The notes under the pieces: model-generated
Database searches by the model: none
Told to the model about the DNA's origin: nothing
Seen by the model: the letters and a program-made list of their open reading frames with translations, nothing else
Translations under genes and position numbers: made by a program
In this document: positions 35,909 to 63,970 of the stretch, piece after piece
Numbering within the stretch: position 1 is the first letter of the stretch
Layout of the letters: each line of letters opens with the position of its first letter
DNA from: Methanomassiliicoccaceae archaeon
GTDB taxonomy: Archaea > Thermoplasmatota > Thermoplasmata > Methanomassiliicoccales > Methanomassiliicoccaceae
Direction of reading: 5' to 3'
Length of the DNA: 64,000 nt
Assembly (NCBI GenBank): GCA_040776945.1
Contig: JAXGZN010000001.1
Location: forward strand, 1,024,001-1,088,000

Positions 35909-36799
35909 TCAGCGCTCGATCCCGGCGGCGCGGCAGGCCGCCGTGACGGTGTTCTTCATCAACATCACTATGGTCATCGGACCAACGCCCCCCGGCACCG
36001 GAGTTATCGCGGAGGCCTTGACCGATACCGCATCGAAGTCCACGTCCCCGACCCACCGATAACCTCTCTTGGCCGAGGGATCGTCCACCCTGTTGGTTCC
36101 GACGTCGATGACCACTGCCCCCTCCTTGATCATGTCCGCGGTGATGAACCCCGGGGACCCGATGGCAGCCACGACAATGTCCCCTGTACGCACGATATCG
36201 GCCAACCCTCGAGTGCGGGAATGGCACACCGTGACCGTGGCGTTCGCGCCCTTCTTCTTCTGCATGAGGATGGCCGCAAGGGGCTTTCCCACTATGTTGC
36301 TGCGGCCGACTATGACCACGTGCTTCCCATCGGGATCGTTCCCGGAGCGCAGCAGCATCTCCTGGATGCCGCTCGGTGTGGCCGGCAGGAACACTGGATC
36401 GCCTATGAGCATCCTGCCAACGTTGATGGGGTGGAACCCATCGGCATCCTTTGACGGGTCGATGCGCATGATCACCTTGTTCTCGTCGATATGTTTCGGG
36501 AGAGGCAGCTGAACCAGGAAGCCGTGGATAGCAGGGTCCGAGTTCAGTTCGTCCACCGCGTTAAGCACATCGGCCTCGGAGGCATCGTCCGGCAGAAGGA
36601 CCGTGCGGGAGTGGAGGCCGAGCTCCTGACAAGCCTTGACCTTGTTGCGCACATACTGCTGCGAGGCCGGGTCCTCCCCCGCCAGCACCACTGCCAGCCC
36701 GGGGACGGTCCCCCTCTCCTTAAGTTGTGCGATCTTGACCCTGAGCTCCTGCCTTATCTGTTCCGCGACCTCTGGACCGTGTATGACCTTCGCAGCCAT
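35909..36799 (-). CDS. folD: Methylene-THF dehydrogenase/methenyl-THF cyclohydrolase
   Basis: YVRNK, VQLPLP, KDADGFHP, GRSNIVGKP, TPVPGGVGPMT. Confidence 0.96.
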   Translation of the reverse strand: MAAKVIHGPEVAEQIRQELRVKIAQLKERGTVPGLAVVLAGEDPASQQYVRNKVKACQELGLHSRTVLLPDDASEADVLNAVDELNSDPAIHGFLVQLPLPKHIDENKVIMRIDPSKDADGFHPINVGRMLIGDPVFLPATPSGIQEMLLRSGNDPDGKHVVIVGRSNIVGKPLAAILMQKKKGANATVTVCHSRTRGLADIVRTGDIVVAAIGSPGFITADMIKEGAVVIDVGTNRVDDPSAKRGYRWVGDVDFDAVSVKASAITPVPGGVGPMTIVMLMKNTVTAACRAAGIER

Positions 36800-37456
36800 T
36801 TGCCAAACCTTCTCGGAGTAGTGGTGAGAGGGGCTATAACCTTGGCGATGACCGGCGGTCTTTTGGCCGGCCGATCCCTTGCCATTCCGAGACTTGGGGC
36901 GGTGCATCGCCGAGGTTTCGGCAAGGACTTGGAAGAGCAATACCTATGCCGCCCGCATTGAGGGACCATATCGCGGGGACGCCTCTCCCCATCACCGGCC
37001 CGGCCAAATTAGGTTCAAAAGATCGATCGGACGCTGGCGGTGGTTGCCATGGAGAACATCACCGTCATCGTGCGGCCCACGCCGCTCCGTCGCTTTCCGC
37101 CCGCCCGGCGGTCGACAATCCCAGTGCGAACATGATCGACCCCGCGATCGCCGAGAGGAACGAGAACATCGTCGCTGCAGGAATGCGGGTCGATGCGCAC
37201 TATACAGAAGGCCGGTTCGATCGGGGCGCTGGTCACAGCGTCCCAGGGGGCATCATTGTCACTTTCTCCTATGGGAGCGCCGATCGAGCGCTCAGCGACA
37301 ATGACCTGGCCATCGATCGATCTTTACCCGGACCGGTGGAACAGTGCCGGTAAGAGGCCCGGCCCGCATGGGGCCTGGATGGGGCAAGGACCGCCAAGAC
37401 CTCTACGGCCGCTCCCACGTCCCGAACGGTTTTTAAGTCTCCCTTGACTTCCCCCG

Positions 37457-39148
37457 ATGACCAAGATGAAGGCCGACATCGATATTGCCCAGGAGGCCAT
37501 CGTGCGCCCGATAGAGGAGGTGGCCGCCGCCATGGGTCTGTCCAGGGACGACCTGGAGCTGCACGGACGTTACATGGCCAAGGTCCCGCTTTCCGTCCTG
37601 CGCCGAATGGACGACCGCGAGGACGGGAAGCTTGTCCTGGTGACCGCGATCACCGCGACCAAGGCCGGGGAGGGGAAGACCGTCACCTCCATCGGCCTCA
37701 TGGAGGCGCTGGGACACATCGGCGTGAAGGTGATGGGCGCTCTGCGGGAACCGTCCATGGGTCCGGTGTTCGGCATCAAGGGCGGCGCCACCGGGGGAGG
37801 TCTGGCGCAGGTCTACCCCATGTGGGACATCGACCTGCACTTCACCGGGGACATCCATGCCGTGACCTCCGCCCACAACCTGCTCTCGGCCATGGTGGAG
37901 AACCATATAGCCCACCGCAACGAGCTGGAGATCGACCCGACCAGGGTGGTATGGAAGAAGGCGATCGACATGAACTGCCGCGAGCTGAGGGACATCGTGG
38001 TGGGCCTAGGCGGACGCACTGTGGGAGGGGTTCCGCGAGAGAGCGGGTTCTTGATCACCGCGGCATCCGAGATCAGCGCCATCCTTGCATTGGCCACCTC
38101 CATGGACGACCTGAGGTCGCGGCTTGGACGCATGGTCGTCGCGTACAACGTCCGGGGAGAGCCGGTCCGCGCCTCGCAGCTGGAATGCGTCGGCGCGATG
38201 CTGGTGCTGCTGAAGGATGCCATCAAACCCAATCTGGTGCAAACGCTGGAAGGCCAGCCCGTGTTCGTGCACGGCTTCCCATTCGCCAATATAGCTCACG
38301 GCAGCAACAGCCTGCTGGCCACTAGGTACGCGCTGAAGATGGCTGACGTGGTGGTCACCGAGGGAGGCTTCGCCTCCGACCTGGGGGCGGAGAAGTTCTT
38401 CGACATCGTTTGCCGACAGGCGGGTTTCAGGCCGGACTGCGCGGTCATTGTGGCGTCGATAAGGGCGCTGGCGATGCACGGGGGGGCGTGCCTGGACGAT
38501 GCCGTCACCTGTGAAGGAGCGGACCTGGCCTCCCTGCAGAAAGGCTTCGCCAACCTGGACAAGCACATAGAGAACATCCGCAAGTATGGCGTGCCTGCGG
38601 TGGTCGCCCTCAACCGATTCACCACAGATGCCGAGGAAGAGATAGAGGCGGTCCGCGAGCATTGCGCAGAGCTTGGGGTGCCCTGCGCCGTCTCTGAGGT
38701 CTATTCGCTGGGAGGCAAAGGAGGAAGGGACCTGGCCGAGACGGTCATGCGCGTCCTGGGAACACAGCGCAGCGACTTTCGCCCGCTCTACGATACCGCC
38801 CTGAGCATCGAGGAGAAGATACGCCTCATCGCCACCGAGATCTACGGGGCCAAGGACGTGAGGTACGTCGGCACCGCCAAGAGGGACATTAGAGCGATCG
38901 AGCTTGCCGGGAACAACAAGCTGCCGATATGCATGGCCAAGACCCAGCTTTCCATCACCGACGATCCGAAGCTGAAGGGCGCTCCCCGGGGGTGGACCCT
39001 CACGGTGAAGGAGGTCATAGTGGCCGCCGGGGCAGGGTTCGTGATCCCCCTATGCGGGGACATCATGCTCATTCCCGGACTGCCGTCGGAACCGTCGGCC
39101 AAGCGGATCGACCACACCGATGATGGGCGTATCGTCGGGCTGAGCTGA
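37457..39148 (+). CDS. fhs: Formate--tetrahydrofolate ligase
   Basis: AGEGKT, LREPSMGPVFGIKGGATGGG, LHFTGDIHA, PFANIAHG, CMAKTQ. Confidence 0.96.
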   Translation: MTKMKADIDIAQEAIVRPIEEVAAAMGLSRDDLELHGRYMAKVPLSVLRRMDDREDGKLVLVTAITATKAGEGKTVTSIGLMEALGHIGVKVMGALREPSMGPVFGIKGGATGGGLAQVYPMWDIDLHFTGDIHAVTSAHNLLSAMVENHIAHRNELEIDPTRVVWKKAIDMNCRELRDIVVGLGGRTVGGVPRESGFLITAASEISAILALATSMDDLRSRLGRMVVAYNVRGEPVRASQLECVGAMLVLLKDAIKPNLVQTLEGQPVFVHGFPFANIAHGSNSLLATRYALKMADVVVTEGGFASDLGAEKFFDIVCRQAGFRPDCAVIVASIRALAMHGGACLDDAVTCEGADLASLQKGFANLDKHIENIRKYGVPAVVALNRFTTDAEEEIEAVREHCAELGVPCAVSEVYSLGGKGGRDLAETVMRVLGTQRSDFRPLYDTALSIEEKIRLIATEIYGAKDVRYVGTAKRDIRAIELAGNNKLPICMAKTQLSITDDPKLKGAPRGWTLTVKEVIVAAGAGFVIPLCGDIMLIPGLPSEPSAKRIDHTDDGRIVGLS

Positions 39149-39243
39149 TCGCCGCTCGGCGCCCATGGCCCCGCCTTCGCGTGGACAACGGCGTGCGGTA
39201 GTCGCGAAGGGACATGCGCCAATCTGTGGCGGCTAGGTCTCAG

Positions 39244-40074
39244 CTAAGGCTTCCCCTCGCCCACATGGCAAGAGCTCAGGTACTCGCTCACGGTCATGAA
39301 CCTATGGCCCATGCACAGCGCCTTCTGCAGCACCTTCCTCACGTTCTCGATCTCCCTCTCGGCGCGGTCCCTGCTCAGTTCCCCTCCAAGCGACTCGGCG
39401 ATATGCCAGCTGTGGTCCGCAAGGACCAGAAGCCCCTCGCTGTGAGCCGACAGCAAGCGATCGTAGTCCTCTGGGGATCTCCGGCCCTCGTGCAGAGGCC
39501 ACAGATAGGATTGGAGAAAGCGCCCCCGAGGGTCCCGGCACTGAGCCAGCGGCACCTCCAGGAGGTTCCCCGCAAGGCGGTAGGGACGAAGCCCCTCGCC
39601 GATCTCGCCGAAAAGGGTGGAATCGTACCTCAGGCCGCGTCGCATGAGCACTCTGGACACGCCCTCATCGATGTGCAGGTACGGGCAACGGAAACCTTCA
39701 GGACGCGTGCCGAAAACTGCTTCCAGGGAGGAAAGGGACCGACCTACGATGGCATCGGCCCATTCTTCGGATGGTCGGAAACCGGTGGCATGGCCAGTCA
39801 GGTCCTCATGGTCATATCCGTGCGCTGCCACCTCATGACCGCGCATCAGCTCCTTCAGGTCGTGATCCGCGGAAAGCACTTCGGCGGCCCTGCCTTCCCA
39901 GAAGAAGGTCGCCTTGATGTCCAGGTCACCAAGCAGACGGACCAGCCGCTCCAGCCCGTCCATCGTCGACGAGAACCTGAGGCCGTCCGCACCGCGGCAG
40001 CGGCCTTCCACATGGCCGGCCCGAGGCTCGTTCACGTCCCGGTCGACGTCCACGGTGAACGAGGCAAAGCTCAT
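39244..40074 (-). CDS. Polysaccharide deacetylase family protein
   Basis: FTVDVD, KATFF, HEVAAHGYDH, GFRCPY, YDST. Confidence 0.85.
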   Translation of the reverse strand: MSFASFTVDVDRDVNEPRAGHVEGRCRGADGLRFSSTMDGLERLVRLLGDLDIKATFFWEGRAAEVLSADHDLKELMRGHEVAAHGYDHEDLTGHATGFRPSEEWADAIVGRSLSSLEAVFGTRPEGFRCPYLHIDEGVSRVLMRRGLRYDSTLFGEIGEGLRPYRLAGNLLEVPLAQCRDPRGRFLQSYLWPLHEGRRSPEDYDRLLSAHSEGLLVLADHSWHIAESLGGELSRDRAEREIENVRKVLQKALCMGHRFMTVSEYLSSCHVGEGKP

Positions 40075-40179
40075 GCCGATGCATGGATGCAATGTCTATT
40101 AACAGTTATACTCGACGAACAATCACCATTTTTAAATAGGCAAAACAGATGAGAAAGGCCAGACTCGCCAGGTGAGACA

Positions 40180-41184
40180 ATGAAGCAGGTTCTTGTTCTG
40201 GGCGGCGGCGCAGCCGGTCTCGCTGCCGCGATCGAACTGTCCCACCGAGGCATACCAACGACGGTGGTGGACAGCGCGCCTCCCCCCGGCGGTCAGGCCT
40301 TCCAGCTCGCCTGCAAGGGCTCACCGGCCTGCCTGAACTGCGATGCCTGCCGGCCTCATGACCTGAGGAGGGAAGCTCTCCGTGACCCGATGATCGACCT
40401 TCTCGCCGGCTCGGAACTGGGCTATGTGGCCCCTTGCAGGGACGGCTTCCAGGCGACCGTCAGGAGGCCGGAGGGGTGCGAGGACCACGAGTTCGCAGCG
40501 GTGATTCTGGCCGTCGGCGCGATGCCGTTCAATGCTGCTATGGACGTCAGATATCGCTACGGGGAGTGCGCCGATGTCCTGACCTCACTGGATGTCGAAA
40601 GGGCCCTGCTCGAGACCAACGCTCTGGCGGTGCCCTCCACGGGGCGGGACCCAGAGAGCATCGCCGTTGTTCAGTGCGTCGGGTCCCGCGACGTCCACCG
40701 GGGCGTGCCGTACTGCTCTAAGGCGTGCTGCAAATACGCGTCCAAGCTCGGAAGGAGGCTCCGCCACCTGTACCCTGAGATGGAGCTGACCTTCTTCTTC
40801 ATGGACTGGAGGCCTCTGGAAGCCTCCGAGCGATCGGTGGGGGATTGGGCCGCCGGGGACCGCATGGTAAAGACCGTGCGGTCCAGACCGTCAGAGGTCG
40901 TTCCTGGCGACCGCCCATTGGTCCGCTATGCGACCGAGGCGGAGGACGTGGCCGAGAAGGCCTTCGACATCGTCATGCTGACCGTGGGCATGGTCCCCCG
41001 GCCGGACAATCCGCGGCTGGCCGAGGCCTTGGGGATAAGTTTGGACGACCAAGGCTTCCTCCGCTCCGCTCGTGACGATGTGCTCGTGGCGGGCACCTGC
41101 GCCGGGCCCAAGGACCTGAAGGAGAGCATAGAGGAGGGCATTGCGGCCGCCGGACGGGCCGCGTCGTTCCTGGAGGCGAAGTGA
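40180..41184 (+). CDS. HdrA-like flavo-iron-sulfur protein, short module 1
   Basis: GGGAAG FAD motif, CKGSPACLNCDAC, QCVGSRD...YCSKACC, AGTCAGPKD. Confidence 0.85.
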   Translation: MKQVLVLGGGAAGLAAAIELSHRGIPTTVVDSAPPPGGQAFQLACKGSPACLNCDACRPHDLRREALRDPMIDLLAGSELGYVAPCRDGFQATVRRPEGCEDHEFAAVILAVGAMPFNAAMDVRYRYGECADVLTSLDVERALLETNALAVPSTGRDPESIAVVQCVGSRDVHRGVPYCSKACCKYASKLGRRLRHLYPEMELTFFFMDWRPLEASERSVGDWAAGDRMVKTVRSRPSEVVPGDRPLVRYATEAEDVAEKAFDIVMLTVGMVPRPDNPRLAEALGISLDDQGFLRSARDDVLVAGTCAGPKDLKESIEEGIAAAGRAASFLEAK

Positions 41185-42257
41185 TGACCGTCCCCTCGGT
41201 TCTGGTCGTAGGCTCAGGCCGTATGGCCTTGGATGCCGCGAGGGAGATCGTCGCTCAAGGCGGGAGGGCCATCCTTGCACGGTCCGGGGGAACGAGACGG
41301 CAGTGCGCCCTTCGGGTCCCTGGGGGCATCGAGGTCATCGATGCTATGCTAGTATCGTTGGAAGGGTCCCCCGGAAGGTTCAGGGCCAACCTCCGCTCCG
41401 ATGAGGACATGACAGTGGAATGCTCCTCGGTTATCCTCGCTCCCGGCCCGGACGACCGTCCCACGCCCCAGGGGACCGTGGACCTCAAAGACCTCGCCGG
41501 GCTGGCGGTTTCGGAGGACGCGAAAAGCGTGGCCATAGTGGTACGTCCCGGCGCCCCGAGGAGCTCGTTCATCCATGCAATAAGGGCAGCCAGGGAGCTG
41601 CGTTCCAGGTCCAGGGCGGTCGCGGTGTTCGCCGACGAGATGTCAGCCTTCGGCATAGATGAGCTGGAGTACCGCAGCGCACAGGCCGAGGGCGTGATGT
41701 TCTTTCGCACGCAAGAGGCCGTCGTCTCGGCCGGTCCATCGAAGATAATGGCGACGGACCTCGTGGCCGGAAGCGTGGTCAACATAGCCCCGGACATGCT
41801 GGCCGTGGTGACGCCCGCACCGTTGCGGAACAGAGAGGTACGCATATCCCATCTTTTTTCCGAGGTCCGAGGTTCGCCGAGCATGGGCGCCTCGAGCACG
41901 GCCACCGAAGGCGTGCTCTTCGCAGGCCATGAGGACGAGCTCCTGGAGGAGGAGGCCGTTACCGCCGCGAGGGCCGCGGCGACAAAGGCCATGACGGTCG
42001 CCCGATCCCCTCCGGACAGGAGGGACCAGGCCGCCATTGTGGACCGCGAGAGGTGCTCGGCATGCCTGACTTGCCTCCGGGTCTGCCCCTTCGGAGCTGC
42101 AAGGCCGGGGGAGGAGGGCAAGGCGATCATTGACGGCGCGCGGTGCCAGGCATGCGGGATATGCGTAGGCGCCTGTCCTGGGCGAGCCATCTCGCTGCCC
42201 AGCCTCGTCTCCGCGGCCAATGGGCGAGAGGCGATATCCATGGGGAGATGCTCATGA
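41184..42257 (+). CDS. HdrA-like degenerate module 2 with C-terminal 2[4Fe-4S] ferredoxin
   Basis: VLVVGSG...LEGSPGRFRA; ELEYRSAQAEGVMF; CSACLTCLRVCP and CQACGICVGACP; translationally coupled. Confidence 0.75.
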   Translation: MTVPSVLVVGSGRMALDAAREIVAQGGRAILARSGGTRRQCALRVPGGIEVIDAMLVSLEGSPGRFRANLRSDEDMTVECSSVILAPGPDDRPTPQGTVDLKDLAGLAVSEDAKSVAIVVRPGAPRSSFIHAIRAARELRSRSRAVAVFADEMSAFGIDELEYRSAQAEGVMFFRTQEAVVSAGPSKIMATDLVAGSVVNIAPDMLAVVTPAPLRNREVRISHLFSEVRGSPSMGASSTATEGVLFAGHEDELLEEEAVTAARAAATKAMTVARSPPDRRDQAAIVDRERCSACLTCLRVCPFGAARPGEEGKAIIDGARCQACGICVGACPGRAISLPSLVSAANGREAISMGRCS

Positions 42258-42661
42258 GCGAGCCGACGATAGCCATGTTCATCTGCCGGAACGCCAGGGC
42301 CGCCCTGACCTCCGCGGACGGCACAGAAATGCCGCTCGCCGGTGTGCAGGTCATCGAGTTACCCTGCTCCGGGCGGGTGGACGAGGTCATGGTCCTCAGG
42401 GCCCTGCGGCAGGGGGCCTGGGCGGCGATAGTGGTGGCCTGCCTCGATGGCAATTGCAGGAACTTGACCGGCAACTATCAGGCAAGAAAACGAGTGGATG
42501 AGGTCCGCTCTCTGTTGCTCCAGCTCGGCCTGGGGCCCGATAGGGTCAAGATGTTCAGCGTGGCCTCGAACCAGCGAGCGGTCCTGGCCGAGGCGGTCCG
42601 CAAAGTGATGGACGAAGCACGAGAAAGAGGGCCGATAAGGATACTGGAAGGTGACCGATGA
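42254..42661 (+). CDS. mvhD: MvhD-type [2Fe-2S] subunit
   Basis: FIC, LPCSGRVD, ACLDGNC..LTGN. Confidence 0.88.
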   Translation: MSEPTIAMFICRNARAALTSADGTEMPLAGVQVIELPCSGRVDEVMVLRALRQGAWAAIVVACLDGNCRNLTGNYQARKRVDEVRSLLLQLGLGPDRVKMFSVASNQRAVLAEAVRKVMDEARERGPIRILEGDR

Positions 42662-43359
42662 TAATCGCCGAGCGCAAGGACCTGAAGCAGATAACTGAGA
42701 TGCTGGAGGGCCGGAAGCGCGTCCTGGTGGCGGGGTGCCGGTCCTGCGTTTCGATCTGCCACGCGGGAGGGGAGAAGGAGGTCGCCATCATGGCCGAGGC
42801 CCTGAGGCTGAAAGCAGAGCGTGAAGGCCGGGAGATGGAGGTCAGCGAGGTAGCGGTCGAGAGGCAGTGCGAGAAGGAATGGGTCAGAGGGATCGAACGC
42901 CAGGTGGCGGCCGGCGATATCGTGCTGAGCATGGCTTGCGGAGTGGGCGTCCAGACCATGCAGGAGGTGTACCCTTCGGTATTGGTCGTACCGGGGCTTA
43001 ACACCACCAGCATGGGCGCCCCGGAGGAGGACGGCATATTTGTGGAAAAGTGCGGTGGCTGCGGGGACTGCGTGCTGCATCTCACCGGAGGGGTCTGCCC
43101 GATCGCAAGGTGCGCGAAGTCCCTGCTCAACGGGCCTTGCGGCGGTTCACAGGACGGCAGATGCGAGGTGGACCGGGAAACGCCTTGCGGCTGGGAACAG
43201 ATATATCAAAGCCTTGGAAGGCTGGGACGTCTCGACCTGTTGGAGGTGAACATCCCTCCCAGGAGCTGGCTCCCCTCCCGTTCCGGAGGCCCCCGCAGGA
43301 CCGTCCGGCCTTCAGTGGCAAAGGGGGCGGAGGAGAGGGCGGCGGAGGTCAGGAGATGA
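42658..43359 (+). CDS. metV: Methylene-THF reductase Fe-S/FMN subunit MetV
   Basis: GCRSCVSICHAGG, ERQCE, ACGVGVQ, CGGCGDC...CPIARCAKSLLNGPCGG..DGRCEV...CGW. Confidence 0.9.
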   Translation: MIIAERKDLKQITEMLEGRKRVLVAGCRSCVSICHAGGEKEVAIMAEALRLKAEREGREMEVSEVAVERQCEKEWVRGIERQVAAGDIVLSMACGVGVQTMQEVYPSVLVVPGLNTTSMGAPEEDGIFVEKCGGCGDCVLHLTGGVCPIARCAKSLLNGPCGGSQDGRCEVDRETPCGWEQIYQSLGRLGRLDLLEVNIPPRSWLPSRSGGPRRTVRPSVAKGAEERAAEVRR

Positions 43360-44267
43360 GGTCAGGCAGCAATCTGGAAAGGGTCTTGGAGAGCGGACGC
43401 TTCGCCGTCACCGCGGAGATCGGGCCGCCAAGATCGGCAAGCTCCGAAGCGGTCAGGAGGAAGGCAAGGCTGCTGAAGGGGAGCGCCGATGCGTTCAACC
43501 TCACCGACAATCAGACGGCCATCGTCCGTCTCTCGAGCATGGCATCGTCGGTGGCATGCCTGCAGGAGGGCGTGGAACCGGTCATGCAGATGACCTGCCG
43601 TGACCGGAACAGGATCGCCATGCAGGCCGACCTCCTCGGCGCCTGCTCGCTGGGGATCAGGAACGTGCTGTGCATCTCCGGCGACCACCAGACCTTCGGC
43701 AATCAGAAGGAGGCGAAGAACGTGTGGGACATCGATCCCATACAGCAGCTGATGGTGTTCCGCCAGATGCGCGACCTCGGCCAGACGTGGGGAGGCGACG
43801 GTCTGGAGGAACGGCCGCAAGTGCTCCTGGGCGCCGCCGCCAACCCGTTCGCCGACCCCTTCGAGCTCCGGGTCGTCCGCCTAGCGAAGAAGGTCAACGC
43901 CGGCGCCGACTTCATCCAGACGCAGGCGATCTTCGACCTCGACAGGTTCGAGAGGTTCATGGGCATGGTCCGCGAGCGCGGGCTCGATCGCAGGACCCAC
44001 ATAATTGCCGGAGTGATACCACTGCGATCGGCCAATGCCGCCAGGTACATGAAGGCCAAAGTGGCGGGGATGAGAGTACCGGATGAGATAGTGGACCGAA
44101 TGAGCAGAGCCACAGACCCTAAGAAGGAAGGGGCCAGGATCTGCGTGGAGACGATCGACCGACTAAGAGCGATGGAAGGCGTGCACGGCGTGCACATCAT
44201 GGCCATCGGGTGGGAGGAGATAGTGCCGGAGATCGTAAGGGAGTGCGGCCTGGACCACCGCCCCTAA
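43356..44267 (+). CDS. metF: Methylene-THF reductase catalytic subunit
   Basis: VTAEIGPP, NLTDNQ, QMTCRDRNRIA, SGDH, GADFIQTQ, GVHIM. Confidence 0.95.
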   Translation: MRSGSNLERVLESGRFAVTAEIGPPRSASSEAVRRKARLLKGSADAFNLTDNQTAIVRLSSMASSVACLQEGVEPVMQMTCRDRNRIAMQADLLGACSLGIRNVLCISGDHQTFGNQKEAKNVWDIDPIQQLMVFRQMRDLGQTWGGDGLEERPQVLLGAAANPFADPFELRVVRLAKKVNAGADFIQTQAIFDLDRFERFMGMVRERGLDRRTHIIAGVIPLRSANAARYMKAKVAGMRVPDEIVDRMSRATDPKKEGARICVETIDRLRAMEGVHGVHIMAIGWEEIVPEIVRECGLDHRP

Positions 44268-44367
44268 GTAAGGGCGAAAGGATCGGGGAGCTCCATATCG
44301 ACCAATATTATTCACAGCGAACAATGCCAAAGATATATCCATGCTCCAGCATATTCACCCTGTTACC

Positions 44368-45162
44368 ATGGATGAGAAACGTTGCTGGTTTTGCCGCCGC
44401 GGAAGAAGGGAACTGTTGGAGGAGCTCCCTGATGGGTTCTGGGACGAGCAACAGGAGATGTTCTTCGATGTCGAGGTCATCGGCAGGGTCAGCGGCGTGG
44501 ACAAGGTGCGTCCAGGGGACGTTCCGCACAGTCGCCGTTTCCGGCGAAAGGGGGCCCCTGAGGATGAAGTGCATGCCTTCGACGACAAGCGCTTCGCCAT
44601 CGTCGGAAGGAAATGCTCGAAGGTGAGCGTGTGCCGGATCTGCAGGAGCCTTGAGACCGCGATCACATCGATCTCAGAGGATGGAAGAGGTGCGGTCCCG
44701 TACCGAGCGATATATCCGCCAACGGCCGAGGAGATGGCGGTCGCAAGGTACTGGGAGAAGTACCGCTCCGAGGAGAAGAAGCTGGAGGCGGACTATCCGG
44801 ACGATGCGTATCGAGTACTGCTCGCGATCCAGCGTATGTATGTCGGCGCACCCATAACCCTATGGGACCTGTCCCAGGAGATGAACGTGTTCAACCACCG
44901 CTCGCTCGAACGGCCAGTGTCCCACTTGCTGGAACAACTGCCTGGACTGGGGATGTTGGACCGCAAGACGTTGACCGTGTATATGAACGAAGGGAAGGAG
45001 GGGATGTCGATGATCGAAGAGTTGGTCGAAAGGTATGAGGATTTCTACCGCCAAAGGGATGTGAGCGTAGCGGTCCCAGAGGCCCCGGCCCGAAGCTACG
45101 AGGTGCTTGCCAAAATAAGGAAGCTGAACTATTCGGACGATGGCAGATATTCAAAGTGGTAG
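44368..45162 (+). CDS. Hypothetical protein with split Zn finger and C-terminal winged helix
   Basis: CWFC...VCRIC; ITLWDLSQEMNV...SLERPVSHLL...GMLD. Confidence 0.6.
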   Translation: MDEKRCWFCRRGRRELLEELPDGFWDEQQEMFFDVEVIGRVSGVDKVRPGDVPHSRRFRRKGAPEDEVHAFDDKRFAIVGRKCSKVSVCRICRSLETAITSISEDGRGAVPYRAIYPPTAEEMAVARYWEKYRSEEKKLEADYPDDAYRVLLAIQRMYVGAPITLWDLSQEMNVFNHRSLERPVSHLLEQLPGLGMLDRKTLTVYMNEGKEGMSMIEELVERYEDFYRQRDVSVAVPEAPARSYEVLAKIRKLNYSDDGRYSKW

Positions 45163-45595
45163 GGAAGAAAAAGCTGACGGGAGGCCCTTGCGACCCGCCA
45201 TTGGGTTTCACCGTGCAGGGAGCGGAGCAAGCTCAACTGCGTCCGCGTCCGCCCGCCCTTATCCGGACATAGGTCCAGCATGCCGCAAAGAATACAACGG
45301 ATCCGCTGAAGTATACCAGCTCGTACAATGCGTTCACCTCCTTCCATTTAACCCCCCTCGGGGCCTGAAACAACTTTGGACCAGGCAGTATTTATTGTTA
45401 TCTAAATAGATAATTGTAAACATTTTATTAATGATTTCTTACATTCGGCAACGCGCCCGACCCCCTGATTTATGTTTGGAAAGTAAAGCTTGCACGTTCA
45501 ATAATCCCACTCACGTGAAAATCCAAGAAGGCCATCGACCGAGCGGAAATAAAAGAAAGGAAAAAAGAGGTTTTACGTGACGCAGGCGCGTCGTC

Positions 45596-47605
45596 TCAGT
45601 CAGGCATCTGTTCCTCGTCCTCGGGCATCTCGAAGCAGGCATAGGCCCCATAGAACATCATTTGCTTGTTGGTGACAGCAAAGCCATCATCACCATGCAT
45701 GACGCTCACAGAGTTGCCGGCAACGAGCAGGCCGCGGATATTGACGTCCACAGGCTCGCAGTGAACGCAGATCGTCATGCAATCGTCGTCACGGTCGATG
45801 GACCGGAAGGAGACCTCAGCGCAAGCATCCTCTCCCGTGACCTTGGAGCAGCCCTCGTAATGGATGGCCGTAACGACATCAGCGCACCTGGTGCAGCCTT
45901 CGCCTCTGTAGATCACTTCCGACCTGGCGGCGACATCACAGAAGACACTGAGCCTTACCGACCCGTCGCAGAAGACCATCTCCACGAGCTGGTGGTAGCT
46001 CACCTCGGTGCGGAAGGTCATGGTCGAGCCATGACAGCCTTCGAGCGGAACGCAGTTCTCGCAGGAGTAGGCCGCGGAGGTCTCCATCGTCACCTTATCA
46101 GGCAGGAAGGGGACCTCCAGTGGCAGGCAGTAGTATGCTCCGTCCAGCTCCGAGTCATCGTCCCAGTTGCAGGCGCCCGCATAAGCGACGTTCTGGAGAG
46201 GGTTCTCGCAGAAATCGATCATCGCCGCTCCGTCCAGGCAGAATGCGACCTGGTAATGGTAAGTATAGCTCTGCCCTGGGCAGAGGACCGGCATGCAGGA
46301 CAGGTCCACATCAACGCAGGCAACGTCTATCCAGCAGGACCCGTCCCACCACTGTACGGTGTCAGTGACGAACAGCCCCTCAGTAGAGTAGTCGCCGCAG
46401 TTGGTCACGGTTATGGAGCCACAGACGACGAAATGGCCCTTGTCGCTTATCACGTACTGTTCGACAAGAACGGGCTGGGCATCATCGGCGAACTGCATGA
46501 TCTGTGGCTGTACGACCTCTTCTGTGCAATCAGAGGGGAAGTTCAGCCCCAGCTTGATGTCCTCGGTCCATCTGACATCCGCCGTCTTGCAGACCTCCAA
46601 CATGGTCTCGAACGCCCCGCTGTATATGCACAGGGACACACAATCGCTCACGACGGTGCAGCTATCGCACGCGGTCAGAACGGCCTCGTTGTTGAGCAGG
46701 TAGGCCGAATCACGAGGTGCGCAAACATTGGAGATCTCCAGGTTCACGCAGACCTCGAAGTGACTGCACTTGTCGTCGAGCATCCAAGGTCCAGTATCGG
46801 TCAGGGCCCTGACCTTGAACCCACAGGGAACGTTGAACACGTCGACAAGGCTGGCGCGGTCATCGATAACGGTACGATCGGGTTCGCAGGGCAGGTCGAA
46901 CTCAGCGCAGGCCCTGACCCCGGAAGGCTCACCGCAATCGTCGGCGAAGTTGGAGATCGTGACATCAGCGACGTTACGATAGATGGCTCCCTCGCAGGGC
47001 TCGAACTCATACTCGTAATAATAGGTATAGCACTCCCCGGCCGCTAGCACTGGATGGCAGGAAGTGTCCACCTCGAAGGACGCATGGTCAGTGAACGCGC
47101 CGCACTCCCTAGATATCTGGATGGTATCGCAGATCGCCAGGTCGACCGTATCGAAACAACCGGTATTGGTCACCACAACGGCCCCTCTGACCCCGAAGAC
47201 CTCATCTACGCAGGCCTTTGAGCGCTCGGCCGTTATGATATAGGATATGCATGAGGTCTCGCCCGGCTCGACCTGTATCCTGCCGGCGCCCATGTTCGCA
47301 AGCGCTCCCCTATCGTTGGCATTCAGCTCCTTGACGACGCTCCAAGAGTATCTGGTGGCCATCTCCCAGAAACCGGTAGCGGTCTTGCAAACCGTGATCG
47401 TCGTATCGCAAGGCGCTAGTTCTTTGGCATCGCCGTCCATATCGTTGCAATCGTCTTTCTCAGCAGGGCATTGCTCGCCTCCGTTCGGGCGTTCGTCCTG
47501 CGGGTCGTTCCCCTGGTCCGCGAGCACCAAGGTAGTAGGACCTTTCAAGGCAACTATGGCAACCGCACTGATCATTATGATCAGGGCTACCGCTAACGCT
47601 ATCAT
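45596..47605 (-). CDS. Secreted or anchored Cys-rich acidic protein with repeated beta-sandwich (DUF11/Cna-B-like) modules
   Basis: Hydrophobic N-terminus, about 48 Cys in 669 aa, internal duplication (VCKTA...VTNxG...DT.Q...VDxSCxPVLxxGxxYTYxY...NVA). Confidence 0.75.
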   Translation of the reverse strand: MIALAVALIIMISAVAIVALKGPTTLVLADQGNDPQDERPNGGEQCPAEKDDCNDMDGDAKELAPCDTTITVCKTATGFWEMATRYSWSVVKELNANDRGALANMGAGRIQVEPGETSCISYIITAERSKACVDEVFGVRGAVVVTNTGCFDTVDLAICDTIQISRECGAFTDHASFEVDTSCHPVLAAGECYTYYYEYEFEPCEGAIYRNVADVTISNFADDCGEPSGVRACAEFDLPCEPDRTVIDDRASLVDVFNVPCGFKVRALTDTGPWMLDDKCSHFEVCVNLEISNVCAPRDSAYLLNNEAVLTACDSCTVVSDCVSLCIYSGAFETMLEVCKTADVRWTEDIKLGLNFPSDCTEEVVQPQIMQFADDAQPVLVEQYVISDKGHFVVCGSITVTNCGDYSTEGLFVTDTVQWWDGSCWIDVACVDVDLSCMPVLCPGQSYTYHYQVAFCLDGAAMIDFCENPLQNVAYAGACNWDDDSELDGAYYCLPLEVPFLPDKVTMETSAAYSCENCVPLEGCHGSTMTFRTEVSYHQLVEMVFCDGSVRLSVFCDVAARSEVIYRGEGCTRCADVVTAIHYEGCSKVTGEDACAEVSFRSIDRDDDCMTICVHCEPVDVNIRGLLVAGNSVSVMHGDDGFAVTNKQMMFYGAYACFEMPEDEEQMPD

Positions 47606-47754
47606 CTTCGTGTTTCCTCTCGTATCAAACCCCCCAATAGGTTTCCGCGATTATTTGACAACCAAATATTATTAATACTTTCTATTCGTTTACTTTTATT
47701 ATAACATTATAGATATTTATTTTATAGAAAAATATTATCTCCAATAATAATGAC

Positions 47755-47770
47755 TGGCCTATATAGGCCA
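47755..47770. promoter_or_regulatory. 16-bp perfect palindrome in AT-rich control region
   Basis: TGGCCTATATAGGCCA, flanked by AATAATG/CATTATT. Confidence 0.45.
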
Positions 47771-47786
47771 TAACATTATTGAACGA

Positions 47787-48560
47787 TCATTTTTGACATA
47801 GTCCCTGAAATTCGCACCAATGGCACAGAGGGCCGCTGCGGCAATGGAAATCATCGGCAGCCTCGATGTCATCTATGAGATGGGACATTCGAACCTCAAG
47901 TTCCTGCAGTTCTTTCAAGGTCCGGGAGGACGTAAGCTCCTTGTCATGCGCTAGATAATGCCACTTCAGACGTACCTCTTGGACCTCAGGGACGTTCTGC
48001 CTTACCCCTATCTCGTAAAGGGCCAGCTGGCGATCGCCATTCACCTCTCTGGAGGATGGGAGCCGGCGGCCGGTCTTGAAGTCGTGGATCTCGTACACGC
48101 CGTCGCCCATGCACCTGAGCATATCGATGAAGCCGATGAACCTATGCCTCTCTCCGATAATGAACCGCAGCTCATGCTCGACCCCTATTATCTTTCCTCC
48201 AGTGAACGGCTGGTGACGGCGATGGTAGGCCTGCAGGCCGGCTCTTGCGGCCATTCGATGGTCAGAGACAGTCTCGCCCCTCTTCACTATCCTCACCAAG
48301 GAACCCTCATAATTGTCTTCCCAAACCTTGTCGAAGTGCTCCATCAGCTCTGCCGCCGTCAGCACATGGCCCTTAGCGGCATTCTCATGAAGATGCTGGA
48401 GCGAGAGATGGACCATGGTGCCGGTAAAAGCCTCGATCCCTCGGACCTCGTCCACCTCGACCTTGTCCACGTATTTGTACTGGTACCTTCTGGGGCATTG
48501 CTCATAACAGCTCAGCCGTGAGTGCGAGTACACCTCGGCGCTAAGCGTCCCATCTTTCAT
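47787..48560 (-). CDS. Stand-alone PD-(D/E)XK nuclease (RecB/AddB/Cas4-like)
   Basis: YSHSRL..YEQCP, GTMVH, GFIDML...IHDFKTG, QLALY, CHWCEFQGLC. Confidence 0.88.
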   Translation of the reverse strand: MKDGTLSAEVYSHSRLSCYEQCPRRYQYKYVDKVEVDEVRGIEAFTGTMVHLSLQHLHENAAKGHVLTAAELMEHFDKVWEDNYEGSLVRIVKRGETVSDHRMAARAGLQAYHRRHQPFTGGKIIGVEHELRFIIGERHRFIGFIDMLRCMGDGVYEIHDFKTGRRLPSSREVNGDRQLALYEIGVRQNVPEVQEVRLKWHYLAHDKELTSSRTLKELQELEVRMSHLIDDIEAADDFHCRSGPLCHWCEFQGLCQK

Positions 48561-49410: not shown

Positions 49411-49550
49411 GCTTCCGGTGCGAAAAAGGCCGCAATGTGATAAAAGCATATCTGCCGCCGGCCGATGGCCAGCGCGGCCATAGGGAAAGCTGCCGTCCAA
49501 TCCCAAAGTAGTTAATGCCGATGAAGGATAGGAGCACCCTGTGAGGCACG

Positions 49551-49886
49551 ATGAAGCGCGACTTTGAGGAAGAAGAACGTGATGAGGAAGAGGACCTGGA
49601 AGCAGATGAGGAGGGGTTCGATGAGGAGGAGCCGATCATGGCCGAGAACGCCGTTGTGGACGTGGCGTTCGGCGAGCCCGACGACGGACCCGAGGAAGAG
49701 CAGAGGGTCATTGACTGGGTGTCGAGCTTTCCTCCAGGTGAGTTCCAGAGGCAGGTGGCCGACCTGTTCCTCTCGGACGGGGAGATCTACGTCATGATGG
49801 ACAAGATGACCGTCGTGCTCCCCCTTGTGGAGCTGTTCAGGCTCCTGCAGAGCTCGGGGGCGGTCCGGGAAATGGAAGAGCAGTGA
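49551..49886 (+). CDS. Acidic hypothetical protein
   Basis: 111 aa with an E/D-rich N-terminus and GAGG SD. Confidence 0.65.
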   Translation: MKRDFEEEERDEEEDLEADEEGFDEEEPIMAENAVVDVAFGEPDDGPEEEQRVIDWVSSFPPGEFQRQVADLFLSDGEIYVMMDKMTVVLPLVELFRLLQSSGAVREMEEQ

Positions 49887-54347: not shown

Positions 54348-54368
54348 AAAGAACGGATAGGCAAAGCG

Positions 54369-56805: not shown

Positions 56806-58674
56806 ATGGGCCACACGGTCACCTTCTACCCGGGCGGCACGGTAGTAGAGGTTCAGGACGGGGAGACAGTGCTGGACGCGGCCGTGGCCGCGGGAGTGCA
56901 GGTCAACAGCGTATGCGGCGGCAAGGGCACCTGCGGCAAATGCCTTGTCATCGTGGACGGGCCGACCGGATCAGAGACCAGGAAGCTGAGCCCTGAAGAG
57001 CACCAGCTGGGCTACCGCCTCGCTTGCCAGACCACGGTGCGGGGCGATATCACGGTGTTCATACCCGAGGAGGCACAGGTCAGCGAGCATCAGATACTCG
57101 CCGGATACCACGGTCGTCAGGCACCGGACCTAACGCCGCTCACGGAGGTGATGAGGCTCGACCTTAACGCGCCATCACTGGAGGATAATCTGGCGGACCT
57201 GGAACGGGTCGCCTGTGCGCTCGGGGAGAAAGGGATTGCCATCTCCCTTCCGCTCCTCAGAGAGCTGCCAAGACTCCTGCGCGAAGGGGGCTGGCAGCTC
57301 TCGGTCATGTTGACCCGCCTGGGAGGAAACGCTCGACTGCTGGCATTGGAGAAGGGCGCGAAAGGGATCCCCAATTATGGGATGGCCATCGACATTGGGA
57401 CCACTACGGTGGCCGCGGAGCTGGTGGACCTCAACAATGGAAAGGTGGTGGCGCAAGCATCGGACTACAACCGTCAGTTGGTGTGCGGGGAGGACATCCT
57501 GTCGCGCATCGCCTATGCCGAGGAGAAGGGGCTCACGAGGCTGACGGAGCTTGTATTGGACACCGTGAACGGCCTGATCGCCCAATTATGCGCGGAAAGG
57601 GACAAGCAGCGAAAGTACCACTCCGGCACCTGCAGCGATGACGTCGCGTCCATCGTTGTCAGCGCCAACACCGCCATGGTGCACATGCTGCTGGGCCTCG
57701 ACCCGAAGAACATCCGATACTCGCCTTACATACCGATCGCCAATGTTCCGCCCTCCCTTTCCGCGTCGGACATAGGCCTGCGGGCGCTCCCCGATGCCCC
57801 GGTCCACATCGTTCCGGGCCGGGCTGCGTACGTGGGCGGGGACATAACCTCGGACATACTGCTCTCCGGCATGCACACGAGCGATGAGCTGGCCTTGCTC
57901 ATAGACGTGGGCACCAACGGCGAGGTCGTCCTGGGCGGGAAGGACTGGATCGTAGGCTGCTCGACATCCGCGGGACCGGCCTTCGAGGGAGGGGAGGTCT
58001 CCTGCGGCATGCGGGCCATGACCGGGGCCATAGATAAGGTGTGCATCTCCGAGAGAGAGATCAGCATCTCCACCATAGGGAACGCCAAGCCCCGGGGCAT
58101 ATGCGGCTCGGGACTTATCGACCTCATCGCCCAGATGTTCCTCCATGGGTACTTGGACAAGAAGGGCAGGATCAACGCCAGCCACGCAGAGAGAGTGCGG
58201 GCCAGCGGCGAGGGCATGGAGTTCATCGTGAACCGGCCGAACGGGTCAAGGCCGATAGCGGTCAGTGACGATGACATCGCCAGCGTCATCCGGACCAAGG
58301 CGGCGATATACGCGGGATGCTCGGTCCTCCTCCAGTCCGTGGACAAGAGGTTCACGGACCTAGACAAGGTGTACATCGCCGGAGGGTTCGGCAGCTACAT
58401 CAACATCGAGAACGCCCAGACCATCGGCCTGTTGCCCGACATCCCCCGCGGCAAGTTCAAGCTATTGGGCAACGGTTCTCTGGGCGGCGCAAGGCTGTGC
58501 CTGCAGTCCCAGACTATGAGGGCCGAGGCCTTCGACATCTACTCAATGATGACCTACCTCGACCTCTCATCCTCCAAGGAGTTCTTCGACCAGTACTCCT
58601 CCGCGCTTTTCTTGCCGCACACCGAGATAGACCAGTTCCCGATGGTGAGGGAGCGGTTGGATGCGAACAGGTGA
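56806..58674 (+). CDS. ATP-dependent reductive activator of corrinoid proteins (RACE, AcsV/DUF4445 type)
   Basis: N-terminal [2Fe-2S] CGGKGTCGKC...RLAC; DIGTTT, YVGGD, DVGTNGE, SAGPAFEG, GICGSG, AGGFG. Confidence 0.9.
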   Translation: MGHTVTFYPGGTVVEVQDGETVLDAAVAAGVQVNSVCGGKGTCGKCLVIVDGPTGSETRKLSPEEHQLGYRLACQTTVRGDITVFIPEEAQVSEHQILAGYHGRQAPDLTPLTEVMRLDLNAPSLEDNLADLERVACALGEKGIAISLPLLRELPRLLREGGWQLSVMLTRLGGNARLLALEKGAKGIPNYGMAIDIGTTTVAAELVDLNNGKVVAQASDYNRQLVCGEDILSRIAYAEEKGLTRLTELVLDTVNGLIAQLCAERDKQRKYHSGTCSDDVASIVVSANTAMVHMLLGLDPKNIRYSPYIPIANVPPSLSASDIGLRALPDAPVHIVPGRAAYVGGDITSDILLSGMHTSDELALLIDVGTNGEVVLGGKDWIVGCSTSAGPAFEGGEVSCGMRAMTGAIDKVCISEREISISTIGNAKPRGICGSGLIDLIAQMFLHGYLDKKGRINASHAERVRASGEGMEFIVNRPNGSRPIAVSDDDIASVIRTKAAIYAGCSVLLQSVDKRFTDLDKVYIAGGFGSYINIENAQTIGLLPDIPRGKFKLLGNGSLGGARLCLQSQTMRAEAFDIYSMMTYLDLSSSKEFFDQYSSALFLPHTEIDQFPMVRERLDANR

Positions 58675-61944: not shown

Positions 61945-62195
61945 GGGTCCGGCGCAGCCTAATGGTCCTTAAGGCCGCTAGAGGCGGCCTCGAAACCATT
62001 TCCGATCATCATTCTCTAACTTCAGGGCGCCTCGCCGGCAACCCTCATCTCGGGCCGTGAACGCCCGGCATATCAGGAGAGCGAGGCCCGGTCCCCGCCC
62101 CTGCCGAACGCACCATCCGCTCCACCATCCGCGCAAAGGTCCCAACAGGCGGAGATGTCCTAATGTTTATTAGACGAGGGAGAGGTACGGCAACC

Positions 62196-63224
62196 ATGGT
62201 CTGGAACTGTGCGCCCAGTGTTATCGGGTCGTTGCCGCACACCGACCCCGCGAGAGCGGTCGACCTCATAATTGACAGCCTGCGGACGATCCCCACGTGG
62301 CCGCAGCTGCCGAACCTGGGCTTCCGGGAGAACATGTACGCGCAATACGCCCGTTATCTGCCGGGAGCGCAGATCGACGAGGCGAGGAAGAAGATCAGGG
62401 TGGACCTCAGCAGCTACGATCCAGAGGACATCTACATGAGGATCGTCTCCGAGGACGTCGACTCCTTCTCCCTGCCGGAGGACAGCTTCGCCGGGTTCCA
62501 CGAGCTCATGTCCCGGGAGTTGCCGGGGAGCGTGAGAGCGATCAAGGGCCAGGTGACCGGGCCGCTTTCCATGGGCCTGCAGCTCACCGACCAGAACGAC
62601 CGGCCGGTGCTTTACGACGAAGCATATGCGGAGATCATCCGCAAGTGCCTGAACCTCATGGCCAGATGGCAGGAGCGGGAGCTTCTCAAGAAGTGCTCGA
62701 CGGCCATAACCTTCCTGGACGAGCCGTACCTGTCGATGATGGGCACGCCGTTCGCCAGCGTGTGCCCGGACGATGTCAGGACGTGGATCGCGGACGTGAA
62801 GGGCGGGCTGGAAGGCCTGACCGGCATCCACTGCTGCGCCAATACCGACTGGCCGTTCGTCATGTCCCTGGACATCGACTTCCTGTCGTTCGACGCCTAC
62901 GATTACGGGTACACCATGCTCCTATATCCCGAGGAAGTTCAGCGGTACCTCGAGGACGGCGGCTCCCTGGCCTGGGGCCTGGTGCCGAACAGCGAGGAGA
63001 AGCTGGGGAAGGAGAACGTGGACACCTTGGTCGCATCCATGGAGAGCATGCTTTCCTCCCTGGCCTCCAAGGGCGTGGACGCCGAGCTCCTGGCAAGGCA
63101 GAGCATCATCACCCCTCAGTGCGGCCTCAGCGGCCTGAGCGAGGATAGCGCCGGCCACGTGCTCCAACTGCTGACCGGCGTGTCCGACGCGCTGGCCGCC
63201 AAGCTCTCGCTGGAGCGGCCATGA
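62196..63224 (+). CDS. Core (methylcorrinoid-dependent) methionine synthase, MesB-like
   Basis: GSLPH, PTWPQLP...ENMYAQ, KGQVTGP, FLDEP, GIHCC, TPQCGL (Zn ligands H/C/C); single barrel with no folate-binding half. Confidence 0.75.
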   Translation: MVWNCAPSVIGSLPHTDPARAVDLIIDSLRTIPTWPQLPNLGFRENMYAQYARYLPGAQIDEARKKIRVDLSSYDPEDIYMRIVSEDVDSFSLPEDSFAGFHELMSRELPGSVRAIKGQVTGPLSMGLQLTDQNDRPVLYDEAYAEIIRKCLNLMARWQERELLKKCSTAITFLDEPYLSMMGTPFASVCPDDVRTWIADVKGGLEGLTGIHCCANTDWPFVMSLDIDFLSFDAYDYGYTMLLYPEEVQRYLEDGGSLAWGLVPNSEEKLGKENVDTLVASMESMLSSLASKGVDAELLARQSIITPQCGLSGLSEDSAGHVLQLLTGVSDALAAKLSLERP

Positions 63225-63970
63225 CCAGCATCATCGCGGTAGCGGGAAAGGGCGGCGTTGGGAAATCAACGCTCGCCGCGCTCCTCGTCCGTGAGCTCGC
63301 CTCTCGGTCCGGAAAGGTGGTTCTGGCGGTGGACGCGGACCCCAACTCCAATCTTGGAGAGAAACTGGGGGTCGAGGTGGAGAGGACCATCGGCGACCTG
63401 CGGGAGGACCTGCTGAAGCGCTCCGATGAGGTGACGGCCGGCGGCTCGAAACAGGAAGCGATGCAATACCAACTGCGCCTGGCAATGGTAGAGGGCCGGG
63501 ACTTCGACCTGCTGACCATGGGACGTTCCGAAGGCCGCGGGTGCTACTGCTACATCAACAACCTGCTCCGTACGTACCTGGACTCGATCATGAGCGACTA
63601 TCCGTACGTGGTCATCGACAACGAGGCGGGCATGGAGCACCTGTCCCGGCGGACCTGCCAGCGCATGGACGCGCTGATCATCGTCACCGATGCCACGAAG
63701 GTCGGCCTGATGACGGCGGGCAGGATACTCGCCCTGGCCAGGGAGATGGAGCTCGAGATAGGGTCGGCGGTCCTGGTGGTCAACCGGGTGAAGGGAGAGC
63801 TGCCGCGGCCGCTGAAGGACGCCATCCCTGAGGGCTTTGCGCGCGTCGCCCTGGTGCCCCACGACCAAGCGATCGAGGACCTCGCGTCGTCCGGGGGGCC
63901 GCTGACCTCGCTGCCCAGGAACAGCACGGCCGCGCAGGCGGTGCGCGAGCTGGCCGGCGAGCTGAGGTAG
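63221..63970 (+). CDS. cooC: CooC/AcsF nickel-insertion ATPase
   Basis: AGKGGVGKST, DADPNSNL, GRGCYC, DNEAGMEHLSR. Confidence 0.9.
   Translation: MTSIIAVAGKGGVGKSTLAALLVRELASRSGKVVLAVDADPNSNLGEKLGVEVERTIGDLREDLLKRSDEVTAGGSKQEAMQYQLRLAMVEGRDFDLLTMGRSEGRGCYCYINNLLRTYLDSIMSDYPYVVIDNEAGMEHLSRRTCQRMDALIIVTDATKVGLMTAGRILALAREMELEIGSAVLVVNRVKGELPRPLKDAIPEGFARVALVPHDQAIEDLASSGGPLTSLPRNSTAAQAVRELAGELR

Follow-up and report, generated by a model that had tools for sequence, protein, structure and literature searches.

How does a methanogen without the tetrahydromethanopterin (H4MPT) methyl branch methylate homocysteine, and from where does it draw the one-carbon (C1) units for its purines? The question is raised by a 64,000-nucleotide stretch of the genome of a Methanomassiliicoccaceae archaeon (G000:C1:1024001-1088000, hereafter the window; genome of 2.17 Mb in two contigs, 99.84% complete), in which positions 35909-63970 carry bacterial-type folate C1 genes and a gene for a predicted core methionine synthase of the MesB type. 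We consider it probable that these genes belong to a bacterial-type, tetrahydrofolate (THF)-dependent Wood-Ljungdahl module, conserved in most families of the Methanomassiliicoccales, that serves biosynthesis and runs in the assimilatory direction. Gene families were assigned with Pfam, NCBIfam and PDB sequence searches. Order-wide counts refer to the same 81 sampled related genomes for every gene, G000 included and some of them incomplete, and absences in the genome or the order hold for the queries used. In the codes below, G denotes genomes, C contigs and L loci, and g and f denote genera and families within the order sample. The family searches confirmed on the stretch every gene named in an original prediction made from the DNA letters, and the presence of bacterial-type folate C1 genes there is thereby confirmed.

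The gene at the centre of the argument, mesB, lies at 62163-63224 on the plus strand. Its open reading frame (ORF) encodes 353 aa; the true start is most likely the ATG at 62196, which stands behind a Shine-Dalgarno-like GGAGAGG and would make the protein exactly as long as that of the identical database cluster, 342 aa. The 353-aa protein matched no Pfam family, Meth_synt_1 and Meth_synt_2 included, as is usual for this divergent family; its only NCBIfam match, of 21.8 bits, was to the MesA model, and phmmer against PDB sequences returned nothing meaningful. Its homologues number thousands, with at least 370 clusters (50% identity) matching at E <= 1e-30, and the nearest are Methanomassiliicoccus and Methanomassiliicoccales records, some of them labelled methionine synthase.

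Three lines of evidence, the zinc site, a structure model and the scores to Dehalococcoidales orthologues, place the protein as a MesB-type core methionine synthase with predicted activity, as had been proposed originally. The putative zinc ligands H223, C225, D244 and C320 (H-x-C...D...C) are invariant in two alignments (A1, n=24; A2, n=57), and conservation of the homocysteine-binding residues S23 and D186 is 90% or higher. The spacing of the zinc and homocysteine residues equals that of positions 177/214/216/235/311 in the Dehalococcoides mccartyi enzyme, as these are given in PMC7857596. The AlphaFold model (pLDDT 95.2) finds MesD (3rpd) first, with a template modelling (TM) score of 0.59-0.61, followed by MetE enzymes, matched in their C-terminal catalytic domains; model and structure match together describe a single MetE C-terminal-like domain without the N-terminal folate-binding domain. 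Price et al. (2021) delimit the MesB class by a phmmer score of at least 173 bits to DET0516, for which six orthologues from metagenome-assembled genomes (MAGs) of Dehalococcoidaceae, Dehalococcoidales and Dehalococcoidia served as proxies; to these the protein scored 237-300 bits. One proxy, L106 (341 aa), has residue numbering exactly as published for the D. mccartyi protein. Identity to Chloroflexota members is about 35-40%. In a FastTree phylogeny of 109 rows, unrooted and made by a quick method, the MesB proteins of the order formed one well-supported clade. Beside it stand a small number of rows that are unnamed or come from Thermoplasmatota and Bacillota, and it adjoins a clade of 61 Chloroflexota rows.

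MesB is also the sole methionine synthase candidate detected in the genome. It is single-copy, with no paralogue found by tblastn and only one gene matching a MesB profile among 12,083 six-frame segments. No match to PF02574, the MetH homocysteine domain, was found in the 99.84%-complete genome with a search that was positive in 9 of 14 reference genomes used as a control, and a genome scan with PF01717, the MetE/MesA-type model, found none. The latter scan excludes MetE and MesA, and not MesC, because the model misses MesB itself and its control was silent in Methanosarcina acetivorans.

Core methionine synthases such as that of Dehalococcoides take the methyl group from a corrinoid protein, and the shuttling of methyl groups between THF, methionine and the corrinoid iron-sulfur protein (CoFeSP) proposed in the original prediction presupposes that a CoFeSP is encoded somewhere in the genome. 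Its genes lie on the opposite strand just past the window: acsC (441 aa, FeS and CdhD domains) and acsD (307 aa) are 2.8-5.0 kb downstream of the window end, beside acsB (713 aa; PF18537, PF03598 and PF19436, the N-terminal domain being of bacterial type), the three genes spanning 2.8-7.2 kb past the end with an ACT-domain gene next to them. The cooS gene (645 aa; PF03063, 551 bits) is on the other contig, at C2:14.5-16.4 kb, unlinked to acsB. The genome has mcrA, and MCH was absent by search, as would be expected of a methanogen lacking the H4MPT methyl branch, a lack that the original prediction took as established for this order. A genome-wide look for acsB, acsC, acsD, cooS, mcrABG and fdh had been suggested; the acs genes, cooS and mcrA were found and fdh was not, the formate dehydrogenase (FDH) alpha-subunit model TIGR01591 having not even a weak match in the 99.84%-complete genome. 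Genes for serine hydroxymethyltransferase (SHMT) and for FolP, dihydropteroate synthase, are present. With these findings the pathway logic of the original prediction is supported.

The ACT-domain gene (G000:C1:1095315-1096370; L004 9315-10370) recurs at other loci of the order (L025, L026, L027), where it is kept beside acsB, or beside acsD even where acsB has been lost. Its products, of 310-351 aa, have a C-terminal ACT domain and 260 N-terminal residues without a family.

Methyl transfer from THF to CoFeSP is the predicted role of acsE, at 48634-49506 on the minus strand (PF00809; NF005719, 281 bits against a cut-off of 259). Its true start is probably near 49410, since homology begins at residue 33. 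The best solved relative is the Moorella methyltransferase MeTr (2e7f, 250 bits), and the Moorella and Carboxydothermus AcsE proteins score 243-250 bits, whereas MetH modules reach about 105 bits and 4o0q, a chain deposited as dihydropteroate synthase, 156 bits; with the narrower model NF040758 the protein reached 169 bits, under the cut-off of 370. These AcsE/MeTr scores, and the lack of a detectable PF02574 homocysteine domain in the genome, led us to reject a split MetH. In relatives, moreover, acsE lies near metF, mesB and acsB, and the protein thus groups with acs genes rather than with split-MetH partners, the outcome on which the original prediction had depended.

A RACo/AcsV-type, ATP-dependent reductive activator of corrinoid proteins is predicted at 56806-58674 (plus strand). 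All four Pfam domains are present in order, from the [2Fe-2S] ferredoxin through the linker and middle domains to the ASKHA ATPase (families PF14574, PF17651, PF17650 and PF00111); against the NCBIfam AcsV "exception" model the protein scored 573 bits, under the cut-off of 800. Directly behind mesB, and overlapping it by 4 bp, is a cooC/acsF-type gene for a putative nickel-insertion ATPase (63221-63970, plus strand), with the deviant Walker A P-loop GKGGVGKS, a C-x-C motif (GCYC) and CooC1 (3kje) as its best solved relative at 76 bits. A cooC is found wherever acsB is nearby, and the two are gone together in G005 and L100; because cooC was lost with acsB in genus g10 while mesB was kept, CooC goes with acetyl-CoA synthase (ACS) and not with MesB.

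The folate methyl branch itself begins with folD (35909-36940, minus strand; PF00763, 143 bits; PF02882, 220 bits), for a methylene-THF dehydrogenase/methenyl-THF cyclohydrolase whose start may be later than that of the listed ORF, since the Pfam match begins at residue 53, and with fhs (37457-39148, plus strand), a formate-THF ligase gene matching PF01268 over its full length at 819 bits. Five plus-strand genes follow, and the 4-nt overlaps that run through the whole series mark them as one operon. The first, hdrA-like 1 (40180-41184), encodes a short flavin adenine dinucleotide (FAD) flavoprotein scoring 145 bits to HdrA 5odc, 106 bits over its full length to the short HdrA-like 6tjr, and 155 bits, far under the cut-off, to NCBIfam HdrA2. 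The second, hdrA-like 2 (41181-42257), has a C-terminal 2x[4Fe-4S] ferredoxin domain (Fer4 families) and scores 64 bits to HdrA2 and 52-67 bits to PDB HdrA chains. Next come an mvhD-like gene for a [2Fe-2S] electron-transfer protein (42254-42661; PF02662, 96 bits), whose ATG overlaps the stop of the upstream gene (ATGA); metV, for the small subunit of a MetVF-type methylene-THF reductase (MTHFR; 42658-43359; PF12225, 115 bits); and metF, for the catalytic subunit (43356-44267; PF02219, 141 bits, with matches to PDB MTHFRs), whose ATG overlaps the metV stop codon. Within this operon, to which the search was confined, there is no hdrB or hdrC. Further along and divergent from acsE, purH (49825-51555, plus strand; PF01808, 372 bits, and PF02142) would encode a 10-formyl-THF-dependent AICAR transformylase/IMP cyclohydrolase.

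Between metF and acsE lies a 4.4-kb stretch (44341-48560) of lower G+C content (0.551 in the 44-48 kb bin), with a 273-aa ORF, a 669-aa ORF that is rich in Cys and hydrophobic at its N-terminus, and a PD-(D/E)XK nuclease; neither the 273-aa nor the 669-aa ORF matched a known family. In most relatives metF and acsE adjoin; the stretch is common to the genus of the window and has the look of an insertion. Between fhs and the metVF operon, the real gene is on the minus strand and encodes a polysaccharide deacetylase (39244-40092); a plus-strand ORF of 312 aa in that interval (39214-40152) looks spurious.

Taken together, these assignments suggest the following route. Fhs and FolD would interconvert formate, 10-formyl-THF and methylene-THF, and methylene-THF, derived from external formate or from serine through SHMT, would be reduced to methyl-THF by MetVF with its HdrA-like and MvhD partners. 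AcsE would then move the methyl group from methyl-THF onto the cobalt of CoFeSP, which RACo would hold as active Co(I). Methyl-CoFeSP may have two uses: at the MesB zinc site it would methylate homocysteine to methionine, and AcsB, with CO from CooS, would convert it to acetyl-CoA. The 10-formyl-THF of the same branch would supply PurH. Without FDH there is no recognised route by which CO2 could enter the methyl branch, which leaves as C1 sources external formate (by Fhs), serine (by SHMT), the cleavage of acetyl-CoA and methyl-corrinoid proteins. Since the host carries mcrA, an anabolic rather than an energy-conserving role is presumed for the module.

The distribution of these genes was surveyed across the order. 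MesB was found in 61 of the 81 sampled genomes, AcsB in 58, AcsE in 55 and MetF in 54; PF03599, the AcsC/AcsD family, matched in 67 when weak partial matches are counted, and strong AcsC/AcsD matches adjoin mesB. Family f7, with 21 small genomes, has almost none of the folate, ACS and MesB genes. In most sampled genomes metF adjoins acsE, and in many families acsE, mesB and acsB share one contig and a span of about 5-20 kb. The original prediction called the branch dispersed, a term that is misleading for genes that form a conserved neighbourhood across the order. All 11 mesB loci of family f1 have cooC directly after mesB, and the arrangement acsB-acsD-acsC/cooC-mesB-RACo, seen at L026 and L027, looks like the compact ancestral form.

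Two kinds of gene loss act as natural variants of the module. Genus g10 keeps MesB, AcsE, MetF and AcsC/D in four of five genomes, the fifth being 66% complete, and AcsB in none of the five; in G005 (99% complete) the locus reads RACo-mesB-acsC-acsD-ACT, without cooC. Because this genus keeps AcsE, CoFeSP, RACo and MesB without ACS, the flow from THF through CoFeSP to MesB is evidently worth keeping without ACS. Between acsD and the ACT gene of G005, a 24-residue remnant of the AcsB C-terminus, 75% identical, survives (L025 10704-10775; G005:C20) and appears to be a deletion scar. The converse loss is seen in G017 (g14) and G042 (g20), which keep AcsB, AcsC/D and MesB without AcsE and MetF, with RACo visible at the G017 locus as well. 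The two variants both point to methyl-CoFeSP as the source for MesB, in support of the published prediction of the donor.

Other variation in the ACS genes was seen alongside. In G010 an ORF of 1358 aa (L027 3911-7987; G010:C8) is a CooS-AcsB fusion with Prismane, CODH_A_N, CdhC and ACS C-terminal domains by Pfam; open frames of at least 1200 aa around acsB occur in 15 genomes of four families, G010 being the one checked with Pfam, and in family f1, the window genome included, acsB is unfused and cooS unlinked. A literature search for a published CooS-AcsB fusion in Methanomassiliicoccales gave nothing relevant. In the small genomes of genus g22 (G046, G052, G058 and G064), which lack MesB, AcsE and MetF, there is an AcsB-like ORF that is divergent and about 680-730 aa long (PF03598, E 1e-30 to 1e-35). 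Many relatives (e.g. G054:C1:2171597-2171953), and not the window genome, have extra weak PF03599 matches restricted to the C-terminal portion of that model. Several of the matches lie in frames of about 330 aa, and they may represent another CoFeSP-like corrinoid protein, conceivably HgcA.

Several considerations weigh against a CoFeSP-fed MesB at the end of an assimilatory branch. The direction of flow is not encoded in sequence, a point on which we agree with the original prediction, and the same enzymes can reverse. A distant MesC-type enzyme may lie beyond the reach of the searches. The genome encodes a corrinoid protein, MtrA, together with MtrH, and these offer an alternative methyl donor. 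In G017 and G042, where AcsE and MetF are missing, the methyl group must derive from acetyl-CoA cleavage. Searches for Fdh-alpha were negative in the genome and in all 21 further genomes sampled from its family. Physical methyl transfer from CoFeSP is a prediction for every MesB, and the characterised enzyme took free methylcobalamin in vitro (PMC7857596). Expression of the region is weakly indicated by RNA-seq libraries, labelled as activated sludge or anaerobic digester, in which near-identical contigs span mesB and extend into cooC, a portion of acsE, and purH; such contigs show sequence presence, not transcript levels or ends. The libraries may include DNA, and in three runs the assembled contigs covered all 30 bins of the stretch, spacers included.

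The branch enzymes are all reversible, and the chief competing explanation is a reverse, Dehalococcoides-style flow, in which AcsB and CooS would cleave acetate-derived acetyl-CoA, the methyl group would pass to CoFeSP and MesB, and AcsE and MetVF would work oxidatively, supplying the synthesis of thymidylate, serine/glycine and purines with methylene- and formyl-THF. G017 and G042, with AcsB, AcsC/D and MesB and without AcsE/MetF, have just the configuration described for D. mccartyi in PMC7857596, and the failure to find FDH, which bars a start from CO2, is in keeping with such a flow. Yet SHMT is a cheaper source of methylene-THF, and genus g10 shows the THF-to-CoFeSP direction working without ACS. 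A genome with AcsE and MetF can do without cleavage for the methionine methyl; since cleavage is needed only where the two are missing, assimilatory flow is favoured, and an ACS kept alongside AcsE and MetF is most simply explained by synthesis. We therefore regard the reverse flow as unlikely, if still to be reckoned with, and retain the assimilatory route.

A different source of methyl groups would be the organism's own methanogenic pool. The mtrA (256 aa) and mtrH (296 aa) genes form a stand-alone, translationally coupled pair at G000:C1:328714-330375 (L110 6714-8375); a hydantoinase-like gene adjoins the pair, other mtr genes are not nearby, and a URO-D/MtaA-type gene lies 5 kb upstream. 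MtrH-family methylcorrinoid:THF methyltransferases occur in bacteria. Methyl groups of methanol and methylamines on corrinoid proteins might thus reach THF through AcsE or MtrA-MtrH, to be assimilated or oxidised to formate; in the opposite sense, formate-derived methyl-THF might feed methyl-CoM. Besides the gene pair with its URO-D/MtaA-type neighbour and, once more, the lack of FDH for a start from CO2, the order-wide distribution of MtrH agrees with such a link: it occurs in 41 of the 81 genomes and in none of the 21 of f7, which also lacks the folate branch. Among close relatives, however, MtrH is patchy (5/9 other genomes of the window's genus; 0/4 each in g2 and g21, although these genera carry MetF and AcsE), the pair lies apart from the folate genes, oxidation without FDH would end at formate, and cultured members of the order are reported, in passages of PMC10804542 and PMC12802149, to require H2. 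That the folate branch is fed by the methanogenic substrates themselves, from methyl-corrinoid to THF by AcsE or MtrA-MtrH with assimilation or oxidation to formate in a supposedly H2-dependent organism, seems to us quite improbable, and a link to the methanogenic pool in one sense or the other very improbable. Full, acetogen-like autotrophic CO2 fixation by the reductive acetyl-CoA pathway could be argued from the presence in one genome of Fhs, FolD, MetVF, AcsE, CoFeSP, AcsB and CooS; with TIGR01591 unmatched here and over its cut-off in only 3 of the 81 genomes of the order, we consider it extremely improbable.

The module can be set beside several known systems. Like the D. mccartyi enzyme, this MesB is a single domain of about 340 aa without the folate-binding half, has the H-x-C...D...C zinc site in identical spacing with the homocysteine-binding Ser and Asp, clusters or co-occurs with CoFeSP genes, and is the only methionine synthase candidate of its genome. 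Unlike it, the protein belongs to a separate archaeal clade, at the modest identity to Chloroflexota given above, and the window genome has AcsE and MetF, so that the methyl group can come from THF. The genetic setting differs as well: mesB is here coupled to cooC, and RACo flanks mesB in relatives, whereas among 80 comparison mesB loci (60 titled Chloroflexota, four of them Dehalococcoidaceae) a cooC-like gene lay within 8 kb in 4 and RACo in 4. With the acetogen branch of Moorella thermoacetica the module shares the enzyme families, including an AcsE that scores 250 bits to the Moorella MeTr and the bacterial AcsB N-terminal domain, and the grouping of MetV, MetF, MvhD and HdrA-like genes in one operon; it differs in having no FDH, no hdrB/hdrC in the operon, two shorter HdrA-like proteins in place of HdrA, and a cooS unlinked to acsB. 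In its chemistry it resembles a MetH split into its parts, with AcsE as pterin methyltransferase, CoFeSP as carrier, RACo for reactivation and MesB as zinc homocysteine module. The last is MetE-like, unlike the PF02574 module of MetH, and the methyl carrier, an Fe-S corrinoid protein, also serves acetyl-CoA synthase. AcsE, CoFeSP, RACo and MesB may form a self-sufficient four-part methionine synthase, as the lineage without ACS suggests.

MesB, or core-MetE, of Dehalococcoides mccartyi was reportedly the subject of work by Deobald in 2020. Both core ideas, MesB and an H4F methyl branch in this order, are already known. Price et al. 2021 (PMC7857596), in the passages concerned, defined MesB, predicted CoFeSP as its donor and stated that Methanomassiliicoccales have MesB only, together with the Wood-Ljungdahl pathway; Xie et al. 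2024 (PMC10804542) likewise describe the H4F methyl branch and mtrA/mtrH in the order. With these two papers in print the arrangement counts as known, and the route that the original prediction had called unexpected was already on record for the order. Rasmussen et al. 2024 (PMC11264602) give, in the relevant sections, MTHFR and folD for MAGs of Methanomassiliicoccales; for sister Thermoplasmata they list fhs, folD, MTHFR and acsA-E. The present genes agree with the sets of both 2024 papers, so far as their text goes, in order, in fhs, folD, MTHFR and acsA-E, and in mtrA/mtrH, given for environmental clades. Cozannet 2021 (PMC7824343) makes no mention of folate or methionine. The RACo-mesB-cooC/acsCDB neighbourhood is not described in the relevant passages of Xie 2024 and Rasmussen 2024, which list gene presence, nor are the lineage losses (acsB; acsE/metF) and the CooS-AcsB fusion in those of Price 2021, Xie 2024 or Rasmussen 2024; the supplements may cover them.

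Of the remaining features, a minus-strand gene at 29894-31621 in the window encodes a B12-binding radical SAM protein (TIGR04190, 636 bits, over the cut-off), another cobamide-dependent enzyme. The supposedly headless Fpo that had been noticed in the window is represented by Fpo-like genes, NuoL-like at 21121-23097 and NuoD-like at 25734-26933; methanogenesis marker 11, also named for the window, was not among 23 ORFs covered by a non-exhaustive scan upstream of 35.9 kb. On the second contig, a protein of 1351 aa with PD-(D/E)XK nuclease and superfamily-1 helicase domains is encoded just upstream of cooS (G000:C2:8702-12757; L024 702-4757).

This analysis contributes comparative evidence in favour of CoFeSP as the donor for MesB, the genera with gene losses acting as natural knock-outs. 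The assimilatory module would explain how methanogens without the H4MPT branch and the membrane Mtr complex obtain the methyl group of methionine, purine carbon and, possibly, acetyl-CoA. It also bears on what the methanogens of gut, sludge and sediment may take from their neighbours, be it formate, acetate, methionine or B12.

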